This document shows positions 3,488 through 40,250 of a stretch of DNA of 64,000 nt, in pieces. The notes under the pieces are model-generated. The model was not told the DNA's origin and did no database searches. It was given only the letters and a program-made list of their open reading frames with translations. A program made the translations under genes and the position numbers. This DNA is from Candidatus Saccharimonadales bacterium (GTDB lineage: Bacteria; Patescibacteriota; Saccharimonadia; Saccharimonadales; JANWIN01). The stretch covers positions 4,642-68,641 of the forward strand of contig JANWIN010000008.1 in NCBI GenBank assembly GCA_025449905.1, given 5' to 3'. The number at the start of each line of letters is the position of its first letter. Within the stretch, counting starts at the first letter, position 1.

Positions 3488-4669
3488 ATGGCAGATTTTG
3501 ACCGCTCAAAGCCGCACATCAACGTTGGAACTATGGGTCACGTTGATCACGGCAAAACTACATTAACCGCTGCAATTACCGCAGTGCTAGCTAAGAAATT
3601 ACCTAGTGATGTGAACAAACCAGTTAGTTATGACCAAATTGACAATGCACCAGAGGAAAAAGCTCGGGGTATTACTATTGCGACCTCTCACCAGGAATAC
3701 GAGAGTGAAAAGCGTCACTACGCCCACGTTGACATGCCCGGACACGCCGACTATGTCAAGAACATGATTACCGGTGCCGCCCAGATTGATGGCGCTGTAT
3801 TGGTTGTTTCAGCTGCTGATGGCCCTATGCCGCAAACACGCGAACATGTTCTTCTTGCCAAGCAAGTTGGCGTACCTTCTATCTTAGTTTTCATGAACAA
3901 GATGGACCTGGCTGACCCTGAACTAGTTGAACTAGTAGAAGTTGATATCCGCGACCTGCTTAAAAAGTACGAATTTGACGAAAAAGCACCTATCATCAAG
4001 GGATCTGCGACTAAGGCTCTTGAAGGCTCGGCTTCTGACGAAGATGCCATTATGGAACTTGTAAAGGCTATGGATGACTACATTCCAGAGCCTAAGCGTG
4101 AGCTAGACAAGCCGTTCTTAATGCCAATTGAGGACGTCTTTTCAATTAAAGGTCGCGGTACTGTTGCTACCGGCCGTGTTGAGCAAGGCGTTGTTAAAGT
4201 TAACGAAGAAGTTGAAATTGTTGGCCTACGCGACACTAAAAAGACGGTTGTTACTGGTGTAGAAATGTTCAAGAAGAATCTCGACCAAGGCCAAGCTGGC
4301 GACAACGTTGGAGTTCTATTACGCGGTGTTGAGCGCGAAGACATCGAGCGGGGCCAAGTTTTGGCTAAGCCCGGAACCATTACGCCGCACACCGAATTTG
4401 ACAGTGAAGTCTACATTCTGACCAAAGAAGAAGGTGGACGACACACACCATTCTTCAAGGGCTACAAGCCACAGTTTTACTTCCGAACTACTGATGTAAC
4501 GGGTGAAGTTGAACTTCCAGAAGATAAAGAAATGGTTATGCCGGGGGACACAATTACCTTTAAAGTGAAATTACTTCAACCGATTGCTATGGAACAAGGA
4601 TTGCGCTTCGCCATCCGCGAAGGTGGCCGAACCGTCGGCGCTGGTGTCGTTACCAAGATTAACAAATAA
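3488..4669 (+). CDS. tuf: translation elongation factor Tu
   Basis: [22 protein letters not shown] motifs; 393 aa; strong SD (taggagaaa). Confidence 0.97.
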
Positions 4670-4673
4670 TAAG

Positions 4674-4862
4674 ATGGCTTTTACGGAAATTTTTACCGCT
4701 TTACAAGAACCAAACACTGCGGACATTGTGATAGTCCTAAGAGGTGATCAGGCAGAGATTGATGCTTCTCGCATGGAAACGGCTAAGCATATTGCATACG
4801 TAACATCTGGAGCTTTAACACTAGAGGAACTAGAAGCTCCTCTGATAGAATATGCTGAATAA
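4674..4862 (+). CDS. orphan small acidic protein (62 aa) between tuf and rpsJ
   Basis: ATG 4674 lies 4 nt after the tuf stop, in frame with ORF 4584..4862; its stop overlaps the rpsJ start (TAATG). Confidence 0.45.
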
Positions 4863-5197
4863 TGGTTGAGACAAAAAAAACCGAAGTAGCACCAAAGCAG
4901 CGGATAAGAATCCGTCTTAAGGCTTATGACCATAAGGTTATAGATCAATCAGCAAAACAGATTGTCGACACCGCGCTAAGAAATGGTGCCACAATTGCCG
5001 GCCCAATTCCTTTGCCAACAAGGCGCAGTACTTTTACGGTTGTTAAAAGCCCGCATGTTTATAAAAAGGGCCGCGAACAATTTGAAATGAGAGTCCACAA
5101 ACGTTTAATAGACGTATTAGACCCTTCGCCAAAAACCGTTGACGCACTTATGAACCTATCCCTGCCAGCCGGCTGTGACGCCGAAATCAAAATGTAA
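4862..5197 (+). CDS. rpsJ: 30S ribosomal protein S10 (uS10)
   Basis: [18 protein letters not shown]...[23 protein letters not shown] is a typical S10 sequence. Confidence 0.95.
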
Positions 5198-5274: not shown

Positions 5275-5751
5275 ATGAACAAGATTGTTCCAGCCATTGA
5301 TAAGGTAGATTTAAGGCGGGGGATTGATCATATTGGTGTTTCGGCTGTTTCAGTGGTGCATGATGGCAAAGGCAAAATCTTGCTTCACAAGCGCGGTAAG
5401 GGCGCACGTGACGAGCGTGGTCACTGGGATGTAATTGGTGGTGCCATTGAGTTTGGGGAGACTATTGAAGAAGCCATTACGCGCGAAATTAAAGAAGAAC
5501 TTTGCACTAAGCCATTAGATATGGTGTTTTTAATAGTATTTGATGCGCATCGCGTCAATCAAGACAAAGATAAAACTCACTGGATAGCCATCTTGTACGC
5601 CGTGAAAGTTGAACCAAAAACAGTTAAAATAGGTGAGCCGCATAAAATGGATGCCATTGGTTGGTTTGGTCTGAAAGATTTGCCAAAACCACCGCATTCA
5701 CAACTCCACAAAGCATTAAAAGTTGCTATGCAGACTAAGATTATAATCTAG
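5275..5751 (+). CDS. NUDIX hydrolase
   Basis: NUDIX box GGAIEFGETIEEAITREIKEELC; 158 aa; inserted between rpsJ and rplC. Confidence 0.85.
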   Translation: MNKIVPAIDKVDLRRGIDHIGVSAVSVVHDGKGKILLHKRGKGARDERGHWDVIGGAIEFGETIEEAITREIKEELCTKPLDMVFLIVFDAHRVNQDKDKTHWIAILYAVKVEPKTVKIGEPHKMDAIGWFGLKDLPKPPHSQLHKALKVAMQTKIII

Positions 5752-7666: not shown

Positions 7667-8503
7667 ATGGCTATAAAAGCTTATAAACCCACTACTCCAG
7701 CCAGACGCGGCATGACAACTCAGGACATGTCAACGATAACCGCTAAAAAGCCGGTTAAATCCCTACGCGTTGTTAAAAACAGAATTAACGGCCGAAACAA
7801 CCAGGGCCGCATTACCGTTCGTCATCGCGGTGGCGGAGCGCGTAAGTTCTATCGAATTGTTGATTTTAAACTGGAATCAGGGACCACGGCGGTGGTTGAG
7901 CAGATCGAATATGATCCGAACCGCAGTGCCCGAATTGCTCGCATTAAGGATGACAATAATAGCTATCACTATATTTTGGCTGGTAAGGGAATGAAAGTGG
8001 GCAAGAAAATTTCTAGTGGCGATGAATCAGCCATTGCTAGCGGCAATCGCTTACCTCTAAAGAATATTCCAGCCGGTAGCTCGATTTATGCTATTGAAAT
8101 GCAACCTGGCAAAGGCGCCCAAATTGCCAGAAGTGCCGGCGCAAGTGCTACACTTATGGGTAAAGAGGGTAAGTTTGCGCAGCTTAGGATGCCGAGCGGT
8201 GAAATTCGCTTAGTAAATTTGGACTGTACAGCTAGCTTGGGTGTGGTTGGTAACGAGCAGCACCAAAACATTAAGGTTGGCAAGGCTGGACGAACCCGTA
8301 GAAAAGGTATTCGCCCGACCGTCCGAGGTGTGGTTATGAACGCCGCAGACCACCCGCACGGTGGTGGTGACGGTGGTCGTCACGGTTCCGGTAAAGACCC
8401 ACGCACCCCTTGGGGCCAGAAGACGCTGGGCTACAAAACTCGCCGACGCAAGAATACCAATCAGTTTATTGTTAAAAGCCGACAGGCAGCAAAGAGGAGA
8501 TAG
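7667..8503 (+). CDS. rplB: 50S ribosomal protein L2 (uL2)
   Basis: RHRGGGARKFYR and NAADHPHGGGDG motifs. Confidence 0.97.
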   Translation: MAIKAYKPTTPARRGMTTQDMSTITAKKPVKSLRVVKNRINGRNNQGRITVRHRGGGARKFYRIVDFKLESGTTAVVEQIEYDPNRSARIARIKDDNNSYHYILAGKGMKVGKKISSGDESAIASGNRLPLKNIPAGSSIYAIEMQPGKGAQIARSAGASATLMGKEGKFAQLRMPSGEIRLVNLDCTASLGVVGNEQHQNIKVGKAGRTRRKGIRPTVRGVVMNAADHPHGGGDGGRHGSGKDPRTPWGQKTLGYKTRRRKNTNQFIVKSRQAAKRR

Positions 8504-8505
8504 CG

Positions 8506-8754
8506 ATGAATACAGTTGATCAAGTAGCAATCCGGGAAGCCTGCGAAACTGGACGCAAGGAAGGAAGATACATAAAAGCTGAAATGCAATTTTTAACTCT
8601 TGAGCAGCAACATATGGTTCAGCTGGAAGTGGCTAGTGATTTGATAGCTAGTGATGGACTGAGCCACAGCAAAAATCAAGGGATTTTCTATGAAGCCGTA
8701 GGCACACCCTTGTGCTTTTTGAGAAAAGAGCTAGGGAAAGAATTGACAAAATGA
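8506..8754 (+). CDS. orphan protein (82 aa) between rplB and rpsS
   Basis: ATG 2 nt after the rplB stop; its stop overlaps the rpsS ATG (ATGA at 8751-8754); no recognisable motif. Confidence 0.5.
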
Positions 8755-9053
8755 GTAGATCACTTAAAAAAGGACCATTTGTAGAACCAAAGTTAGCTAA
8801 GAAAGTTGCTGCATTGGGCGCTGAAGACCGCACCATTATCAAGACTTGGGCGCGCTACAGTGTTATTTCGCCTGATTTTGTAGGCCGCACCATTGCCGTC
8901 CATAACGGCAAAGTTCATATTCCGGTATTTATTACTGAAAACATGGTTGGGCATAAGTTAGGTGAATTCTCACCAACCCGTAAATTCCGCGGGCATGGTG
9001 GTAGATTAGCTAAAGAACAAGGCACGACCGCGCCTAAGGAAGCAGGAGCTTAA
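8751..9053 (+). CDS. rpsS: 30S ribosomal protein S19 (uS19)
   Basis: [15 protein letters not shown] is the canonical N-terminus. The ORF track opens at 8712, but ATG 8751 is preferred. Confidence 0.95.
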
Positions 9054-39909: not shown

Positions 39910-40137
39910 ATGGAAGGTCAAATAAGCGAACCTGTTTCTAGCCAAGAACCAATAGTAGACCCTGAAGTCTATAGGCTACTTGAAATTGGTGAAAAACTTA
40001 AAGCCTTTGGCCTATTAAGTCGAGAGATAAGACTTGAGCTTATACACGGTGCGCCTTGTGGCGAACAATGGAGTGTCAGGCTAATGCGCTGGTACCCGAA
40101 ACCAACGGTTGACGAAACATCTGAATCTAATCTATAA
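39910..40137 (+). CDS. hypothetical protein (75 aa)
   Basis: ATG 39910 preceded by AGGAGG at 4 nt. The longer ORF-track frame (39661) runs through the leuA-family 3' end and the leader region. Confidence 0.45.
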   Translation: MEGQISEPVSSQEPIVDPEVYRLLEIGEKLKAFGLLSREIRLELIHGAPCGEQWSVRLMRWYPKPTVDETSESNL

Positions 40138-40139
40138 TA

Positions 40140-40234
40140 TACTGGTTACCAGAGACAGTGGCGGCGAAAGCTTAATTATGCCACCGAGGTAGAAACAACT
40201 TTTCTATGTCTTTGGTATGCGCCAAAGATTTTTT
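40140..40234 (+). promoter_or_regulatory. rplJ (L10) leader-like structured 5' region with terminator-type hairpin
   Basis: GTGGC...GCCAC helix (40159-40185). TCTTTGG/tatgcg/CCAAAGA plus T6 (40209-40234), 16 nt before the rplJ ATG. L10-leader autoregulation is known in other bacteria. Confidence 0.45.
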
Positions 40235-40250
40235 AATTTTAAGAGGTAAG

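Follow-up and report, generated by a model that had tools for sequence, protein, structure and literature searches.

A family of small proteins in a variable gene slot between rplB and rpsS of Saccharibacteria

What can stand between rplB and rpsS, two genes that are, to our knowledge, otherwise adjacent throughout bacteria, archaea, and plastids? The question is raised by a 64,000-nucleotide stretch of contig JANWIN010000008.1 from a Candidatus Saccharimonadales bacterium (the window), in which a small open reading frame (ORF) occupies the junction between the genes for the ribosomal proteins uL2 (rplB) and uS19 (rpsS). A preliminary description of this locus regarded the ORF as an orphan with no recognisable family, wedged between its neighbours by tight translational coupling. 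Having compared the locus with its relatives, we consider it probable that the ORF encodes a genuine small four-helix protein of a translationally coupled slot, where it would be an exchangeable and dispensable accessory.

The S10 ribosomal-protein operon of the window (Saccharibacteria, TM7) runs rpsJ, a Nudix-like ORF, rplC, rplD, rplW, rplB, the ORF in question, rpsS, rplV, rpsC, and onwards. As originally described, the ORF fills the rplB–rpsS junction exactly: we confirmed its coordinates, the gap of 2 nucleotides (nt) between the rplB stop codon and its ATG, and the ATGA overlap of its stop codon with the start of rpsS, and the two flanking genes matched the L2 and S19 families of Pfam (Table 1). 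The layout of tight coupling was likewise borne out, with a Shine-Dalgarno element inside the end of rplB on one side and the overlap with rpsS on the other. Comparison of the junctions revealed that the same Shine-Dalgarno element serves rpsS directly in relatives lacking an insert. The only purine-rich stretch upstream of rpsS in the window is weak, and rpsS is therefore probably reliant on ribosomes that finish the ORF. Translational coupling needs overlaps or very short distances (PMC6728339; PMC10666635). The architecture of the ORF is that of a doubly coupled cistron, from which translation at the level of ribosomal proteins may reasonably be expected. Both the GC content at third codon positions (0.38) and the codon adaptation (0.67) of the ORF are ordinary for the host genome.

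Judged from its sequence, the ORF is almost certainly a real coding gene of what we term family A, an unannotated family of rplB–rpsS slot proteins of ~80 amino acids (aa) defined in the present analysis. Searching the related loci with tblastn identified homologues in two of them (L034 and L049) with 37–38% identity, and a profile built from three sequences brought the membership to four in all. With the four-member profile, HMMER was then run exhaustively over 1.84 billion representative proteins and gave 24 matches, 22 of which are proteins of 76–104 aa that align end to end and form 22 clusters at 50% identity. The two long matches (P0023 and P0024) were rejected as spurious, being DUF7453 or eight-lipocalin-domain repeat proteins in which a single short motif is matched again and again. 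The window protein fits the family profile over positions 1–81 with an expect value (E) of 4e-33. Five residues (G16, A43, Q58, G59, and L69) are invariant in the 24-sequence alignment, to all of which the window protein conforms, and three more (I9, R10, and P68) are nearly so; the family also shares the motif QG[IVFM][WF][HY]xV..PL[CS].

The fold of family A was predicted confidently and reproducibly by AlphaFold2, with a predicted local distance difference test score (pLDDT) of 92 from four sequences, and of 93–94 for all five models together with a predicted template-modelling score (pTM) of 0.83 from 24 sequences. The predicted structure of the window protein comprises four helices (residues 3–27, 32–48, 51–64, and 69–81). 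The conserved residues are mostly small or located in the core, including a GxxxG in helix 1, and few of them are polar; as we read the alignment, the family has no visible catalytic constellation. We accordingly picture the product of the window gene as small, compact, and helical, without enzymatic activity, and as belonging to a new family.

The known families and structures that we searched offered no relatives. The window protein had no match in NCBIfam, none of the 24 family A members had one in PHROGs, and the sequence profile search of the PDB was empty, while the word-indexed protein search matched the window protein to itself only. The Pfam entry DUF7397 came up at E 0.2, far short of the cut-off, and was discarded. 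Foldseek searches against the PDB (with two models) and BFVD gave best E values of 0.5–3 and template-modelling (TM) scores of at most 0.55, so no solved or viral predicted structure is alike. No significant similarity to a known ribosomal protein family emerged from Pfam, NCBIfam, the PDB profile, or Foldseek against the PDB, and none of the sources searched holds an annotation or a name for the ORF. The statement that the protein has no recognisable family thus stands for Pfam, NCBIfam, PHROGs, Rfam, and the PDB and gives way only to the HMMER scan with its related clusters; the term orphan has to be replaced by that of a conserved family, found at the same junction in each of the 12 clusters that could be examined.

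The family is maintained as protein. The only close pair among its members, L034 and L081, differs in the slot ORF with non-synonymous and synonymous rates (dN and dS) of 0.109 and 0.364, giving a dN/dS of 0.30, and non-synonymous changes fall below the neutral expectation (p = 0.004). The flanking genes of the same pair have ratios of 0.037 (uL2) and 0.034 (uS19). For the other family A pairs, synonymous sites are saturated while the amino-acid identity is still 25–45%. The frame is intact in every family A member found, and the gene is under purifying selection. In the part that could be applied, the checks suggested in the preliminary description went in favour of the gene: dN/dS behaved as for a coding sequence, frame conservation held throughout the family, within the limit that the nearest L2 is 78% identical, and profile search and structure prediction delivered a family and a confident fold, although no link to a known family. 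A separate feature of the L034/L081 pair is that dS is 0.36 in the slot ORF and 0.28 at the start of rpsS, far below the 1.45 of rplB; recombination with a boundary close to where rplB ends could account for it, as could an RNA-level constraint.

As for its location, family A resides between rplB and rpsS in all 12 clusters with readable context (the window, L034, L049, P0004 on three contigs, P0005, P0009, P0013, P0017, P0018, P0021, P0022, and P0026). Its members start 0–4 nt after the rplB stop codon; at the other end they overlap rpsS in an ATGA, ATGTCTAG, or 1-nt form, unless another inserted ORF follows directly. No paralogue was found elsewhere in the 64-kb window.

How common is an occupied junction? 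We compared relatives chosen by similarity to the uL2 of the window, namely 80 species-representative genomes and 80 metagenome contigs, all of them Saccharibacteria; the sampling is biased to genomes with a uL2 68–78% identical to that of the window. Both rplB and rpsS were present in 154 loci, including five fetched via family A proteins. The gap between the two genes is bimodal, being shorter than 30 nt in 114 loci and at least 100 nt in 40, with none at 30–99 nt. When the five loci fetched via family A are set aside, the gap reaches at least 100 nt in 35 of 149 loci (23%) and is empty in ~77%. Contrary to what the preliminary description suggests, the occupied junction is no peculiarity of the window genome: about 23% of the sampled Saccharibacteria have it filled, usually by an unrelated ORF, and family A is found in only two of 79 species representatives. 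Within the operon, inserts of at least 200 nt occur at rplB–rpsS in 39 of 156 loci and at most once at every other junction from rplC to rplX. In genomes without inserts, rplB–rpsS is also the sole junction with a real spacer (a median of 11 nt versus −5 to +1.5 nt elsewhere), so that DNA may enter there without harming overlapping codons.

The inserts themselves look like genes. We counted 35 distinct inserts of 200 nt or more; in 34 of them, one frame is open across 95% or more of the insert, versus 0.72 expected from shuffles. Their frames begin with an ATG 2–3 nt after the rplB stop codon and end overlapping the start of rpsS; almost all of the inserted ORFs of the relatives close with ATGA, ATGTCTAG, or a 1-nt overlap. 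The encoded proteins comprise 76–147 aa and mostly have an isoelectric point (pI) of 4–5. Every one of the 35 slot ORFs, singletons included, shows a codon periodicity (G at 0.40 in position 1 versus 0.18 in positions 2 and 3), which is strong enough to make them look like evolved coding sequence, beyond mere stop-free DNA. By sequence they fall into family A, four clear families (B–E), a looser group (F) united by MIxFxNxPP at the N-terminus, and about 14 singletons. Pfam, including its Imm families, had no match for the 30 other slot ORFs or the window protein, and PADLOC none for the 30 slot ORFs outside family A. A single superfamily for all slot ORFs was considered and rejected: the family A profile finds none of the others, the best E being 0.09. 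The inserts are present in many independent assemblies, including the complete chromosomes CP025011.1 (L058) and OY970327.1 (L070).

Small acidic ORFs of the same style (72–109 aa, pI 4.1–5.2), overlapping both neighbours and filling the junction exactly, were also observed at other junctions in four single cases: rplC–rplD (L157; 235 nt, 78 aa), rplW–rplB (L048; 256 nt, 85 aa), rplV–rpsC (L025; 328 nt, 109 aa), and rpsQ–rplN (L004; 217 nt, 72 aa). The rplB–rpsS slot is filled as well in three of these four genomes.

The slot content turns over between close relatives. Three loci, L048, L157, and L080, are 91–94% identical in the final 300 nt of rplB at the nucleotide level and 93–94% identical in concatenated ribosomal proteins; the slot of L048 contains a family B ORF of 291 nt and that of L157 an unrelated ORF of 246 nt (48% nucleotide identity, a random level), while L080 has an empty 3-nt spacer. 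Since point mutation could not erase all similarity while the flanks remain more than 90% identical, replacement is demonstrated. Other close pairs consist of a filled and an empty slot (L012/L029, L152/L161, L126/L140, and L133/L071), and L045 and L130, which are 91% identical, carry different slot ORFs. Across 28 filled genomes, the sampled genome nearest to each had an empty slot in 16 cases, a different ORF in ten, and the same family in two. Members of the same family are scattered in a neighbour-joining tree of 11 proteins, the deep nodes of which are unreliable. The rplB–rpsS slot very probably behaves as an exchangeable accessory-gene site, and its turnover argues for a dispensable accessory protein and not for a core ribosomal component.

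Cassettes can also be stacked. In L168, a family A ORF (452-718) is followed 1 nt later by a 108-aa family-E-like ORF (720-1046) that ends in the overlap with rpsS and has the motif EPP[LM]T.[ED]E in common with family E. Similarly, a contig of P0013 carries a family A member and then a 97-aa ORF without a Pfam match, both within the slot. We searched for traces of the route by which cassettes arrive. No target-site duplication was found: in 34 cassettes, the starts of the ORF and of rpsS share at most 6 nt including the ATG (3–4 nt in 28). There are no flanking repeats in the window, and no integrase, transposase, or attC-like repeats, the neighbours being ribosomal-protein genes only. Comparing the inserts with their own loci by blastn and tblastx gave no link, except for one hairpin arm in L075 that matches other hairpins of that locus. 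Because of this lack of any mobile-element signature, we infer that exchange proceeds by homologous recombination via the conserved rplB and rpsS flanks.

The hairpins belong to another kind of insert, which is non-coding, ~100–160 nt long, and present at many operon junctions, several in each of L052, L032, L006, L013, L075, and L077. In L052, for example, they lie at 1793-1906, 4265-4421, 4815-4944, and 5575-5722. The junctions concerned include rplC–rplD, rplW–rplB, rpsS–rplV, rplV–rpsC, rpsC–rplP, rplP–rpmC, and rpmC–rpsQ. Their arms consist of tandem 7–8-nt units (e.g., GGTCAAT repeated) and the reverse complement, followed by a GGAG Shine-Dalgarno element; L013 and L006 have a second, non-repetitive type (GGGAAAAGAGCAGCC...GATGAGAAAAACCGTAGGTTTGTCTCAT). 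The operon of the window has none.

How might such a slot work? Ribosomes would start on the ORF either from the Shine-Dalgarno element in the last rplB codons or directly after terminating on rplB 2 nt upstream, and termination at the TGA overlapping the rpsS ATG would lead to reinitiation on rpsS. The ORF protein would then be made roughly one-for-one with uS19; expression of rpsS would depend on an open ORF, and every insert would have to stay open. Exchange of cassettes would rely on homologous recombination in the conserved flanks, with DNA uptake as a plausible first step. The product would be a dispensable, soluble, non-enzymatic binding protein made in step with the ribosomal proteins. 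The acidic charge and the operon-only distribution make a link to the translation apparatus or its attackers plausible. More specifically, the product might be an accessory binder that does not reside on the ribosome, a tentative assignment to which we give somewhat less than an even chance.

Three other explanations have to be weighed against this one. The ORF might not be a gene at all: the frame could be open by chance, the stretch could act as a structured RNA or leader in the regulation of rpsS, or it could be an artefact of assembly. The shortness of the ORF together with its absence from all annotation could be taken that way. We regard this possibility as negligible. Of the shuffled versions of the 247-nt insert, only 0.9% had any frame open across 95% or more of the length (p ~0.009), which speaks against a chance frame for the window alone; the 34 open inserts among the relatives and the 22-cluster family leave still less room for it. 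The insert does not look like a regulatory RNA either: Rfam has no match to it, whether at the gathering score or with E relaxed to 1, its folding shows no excess structure (z = −0.67), and a promoter and terminator scan stayed at background level, with none of the few consensus matches within the insert. An artefact is contradicted by the many independent assemblies, complete chromosomes among them. Alternatively, the ORF could be a spacer without protein function, stop-free only because a premature stop would uncouple rpsS, with irrelevant amino acids. The extreme diversity of sequence and length behind an identical start and stop geometry would fit such a spacer, as would the short hairpin-type inserts that occupy the slot in L052 (151 nt) and L032 (107 nt), which are also open from ATG to the rpsS overlap, while similar hairpins at other junctions are not. 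Moreover, at least one of the two alternative frames meets a stop within 8 nt in codons 1–3 of rpsS (ATGAGTAGA or ATGTCTAGA). Irrelevant amino acids, however, would hardly be conserved in family A across lineages with saturated synonymous sites, nor evolve with the low dN/dS of the family A pair, nor yield a confident fold prediction. The G periodicity and acidic composition of the 35 long ORFs are not produced by the absence of stop codons alone, and families B–E retain protein similarity between genomes ~70–80% identical in uL2. We therefore consider the spacer highly improbable, although somewhat less so than the absence of a gene.

A more serious alternative is that the ORF encodes a lineage-specific component of the ribosome, or an escort binding newly made basic uL2 or uS19 or the assembled ribosome, and is co-located with their genes for matched amount, time, and place. 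Family A is indeed confined to the ribosomal-protein operon in all 12 clusters and strictly coupled to rpsS, rare ORFs of the same style sit at rplC–rplD, rplW–rplB, rplV–rpsC, and rpsQ–rplN of the same operon, and the pI of 4–5 of most slot proteins means a charge opposite to that of ribosomal proteins. In addition, the products of coupled genes that overlap are often subunits of the same complex (PMC10666635). The location in the operon would also be explained, however, if homologous flanks were required for a cassette to move. The slot is empty in about three quarters of the sampled Saccharibacteria and holds unrelated proteins in close relatives, which is unlike the evolution of ribosomal proteins or their dedicated partners; this absence and the non-homologous replacement speak against a core ribosomal role. 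The window protein, with a pI of 5.6, is mildly acidic at most, and it resembles no ribosomal protein or assembly factor in fold or sequence (best Foldseek E against the PDB, 2.2). We judge a component or escort unlikely, yet clearly more probable than a spacer.

The preferred reading, a coupled and exchangeable accessory gene, has its own weak points. The functional statement is its weakest step, drawn from the size and charge of the proteins, their turnover, and the absence of any conserved catalytic residue. The case for every family member consists of sequence and predicted structure. The dN/dS estimate comes from one pair with 36 substitutions. Scans seeded with L2 of species-representative genomes and metagenomes found no relative with more than 78% uL2 identity with which to compare the window gene itself. 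The relatives were viewed over ~3 kb on each side of rplB. With regard to exchange, the slot does not exceed its flanks in similarity in any same-family pair, so that a recent transfer was not directly seen, and the identity of slot proteins is weakly correlated with that of uS19 (rho 0.41), which fits some vertical descent. Given the unreliable deep nodes of the species tree, the scatter of family A could reflect an ancient presence followed by many losses instead of exchange. The slot families are perhaps under-merged, as fast-evolving helical proteins escape sequence comparison.

A further-reaching proposal, possible but on the whole doubtful, is that the junction is a dedicated exchange site within an essential operon, at which at least 20 unrelated small acidic proteins are swapped via the flanks and made one-for-one with ribosomal proteins. 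The cassettes may then be interchangeable guard or immunity modules that shield the translation machinery of these epibionts from toxins or antibiotics aimed at the ribosome, whether these come from hosts, competitors, or phages. The site may also be a gene nursery, since any insert must be translated to keep rpsS coupled and new DNA is thereby forced into high-level translation, with inserts maturing into folded proteins such as family A. These two roles do not exclude each other.

Table 1. Coordinates of the features of the window discussed in the text.
Feature	Position	Strand	Basis and remarks
rplB (ribosomal protein uL2), upstream flank	7667..8503	+	ORF list; Pfam Ribosomal_L2_N E 9e-27, Ribosomal_L2_C E 1e-50; stop codon TAG 8501-8503
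Shine-Dalgarno GAGGAG	8494..8499	+	Inside the end of rplB, in its last codons; 6 nt upstream of the ORF ATG; strong, well spaced
Inserted gene, family A member, 82 aa, pI 5.6	8506..8754	+	ATG 8506-8508, TGA 8752-8754
GGGAAAG, sole purine-rich stretch upstream of rpsS	8734..8740	+	Weak; poor spacing, ends 10 nt before the ATG
ATGA overlap of ORF stop and rpsS start codon (termination-reinitiation junction)	8751..8754	+	Sequence; rpsS ATG 8751-8753
rpsS (ribosomal protein uS19), downstream flank	8751..9053	+	Pfam Ribosomal_S19 E 2e-34; N-terminus common to all relatives
Nudix-family hydrolase ORF, 158 aa	5275-5751	+	Between rpsJ and rplC; MutT-like box
rplW (uL23), 155 aa	7199-7666		Long Lys/Glu/Ala-rich C-terminal extension
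rpsQ (uS17), 134 aa	10684-11088		Long Lys/Glu/Ala-rich C-terminal extension
L10_leader	40131-40244	+	Rfam match, 66 bits vs gathering score 44

Other features of the window were noted in passing. The Nudix-family ORF has NCBIfam matches at about E 1e-10, all below their own cut-offs. The rpsJ–rplC gap is large in all 31 related loci in which both genes were seen, with a median of 646 nt in the 25 species-representative loci, so an extra gene there seems usual in the group. The C-terminal extensions of uL23 and uS17 (Table 1) compare with customary lengths of ~100 aa and ~85 aa, respectively. The L10 leader is an ordinary one, unrelated to the slot.

The locus shows what an essential, translationally coupled operon can accommodate: it can host exchangeable accessory genes, provided that each insert restores the coupling. 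Family A adds a new family of small proteins, whose fold is predicted with confidence and for which no relatives are known, and the slot contributes at least 20 further unannotated small proteins, which would probably be among the most highly expressed of these cells. For annotation, the slot ORFs deserve gene calls, and the junction should not be presumed empty when blocks of ribosomal-protein genes are used in phylogeny or binning. Saccharibacteria are now genetically tractable.

How does the slot compare with known systems? Our full-text literature searches turned up no account of an ORF in the rplB–rpsS junction of Saccharibacteria or of other members of the candidate phyla radiation (CPR), and an analysis of CPR ribosomes does not describe one either (PMC9297842). 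A hot spot of gene turnover is unexpected at rplB–rpsS because this is among the most conserved gene adjacencies in biology. The overlap of the ORF stop codon with the rpsS start is like that of translationally coupled pairs using ATGA or TGATG for termination and reinitiation (PMC6728339; PMC10666635). The position of the ORF 2 nt after the rplB stop codon and an rpsS without a good Shine-Dalgarno element of its own are further likenesses. The coupling itself is ordinary, whereas family A is a new protein family; the slot differs from coupled pairs in that its middle gene is dispensable and non-homologous between relatives, the predicted coupling being invariant and the protein variable.

Non-ribosomal genes are known from ribosomal-protein operons, such as secY, adk, map, and infA in the spc/alpha cluster and ybxF beside rpsL in Bacillus. 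The slot resembles them in placing a gene for a non-ribosomal protein under co-transcription with ribosomal-protein genes in a translation-related neighbourhood. However, those genes are conserved, of known function, and fixed in position over large clades, whereas the slot is filled in ~23% of genomes by at least 20 unrelated ORFs. Small ribosomal proteins have also been found late, for instance bS22 and bL37 in mycobacteria and Bacteroidota, which are short, very basic, rRNA-binding, and conserved within their lineage. Slot proteins are similarly small, lineage-restricted, and missed by standard annotation, but they comprise 50–147 aa, are neutral to acidic, are predicted to be globular and helical, and are patchily distributed; the lineage-wide presence of a ribosomal protein is not found, as the slot is filled in only 35 of the 149 loci.

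Other parallels are offered by cassette-type loci (integron cassette arrays, anti-CRISPR loci, and the orphan immunity-gene arrays of polymorphic toxin systems) and by variable accessory hot spots that lie between core genes. We know of no variable hot spot inside a translationally coupled essential operon. In common with these systems, the slot has a fixed position with conserved flanks, holds small, mostly acidic, and mutually unrelated ORFs, undergoes gain, loss, and replacement between close relatives, and allows tandem stacking, as in L168 and the P0013 contig. Slot ORFs may conceivably be orphan immunity genes. No cognate toxin gene lies beside the window ORF, its flanks being rplB and rpsS, and the slot generally differs from those systems in having no integrase, attC-like repeats, target-site duplications, toxin, or marker gene. 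It also differs in lying inside an essential, tightly coupled operon, where each cassette must preserve the coupling.

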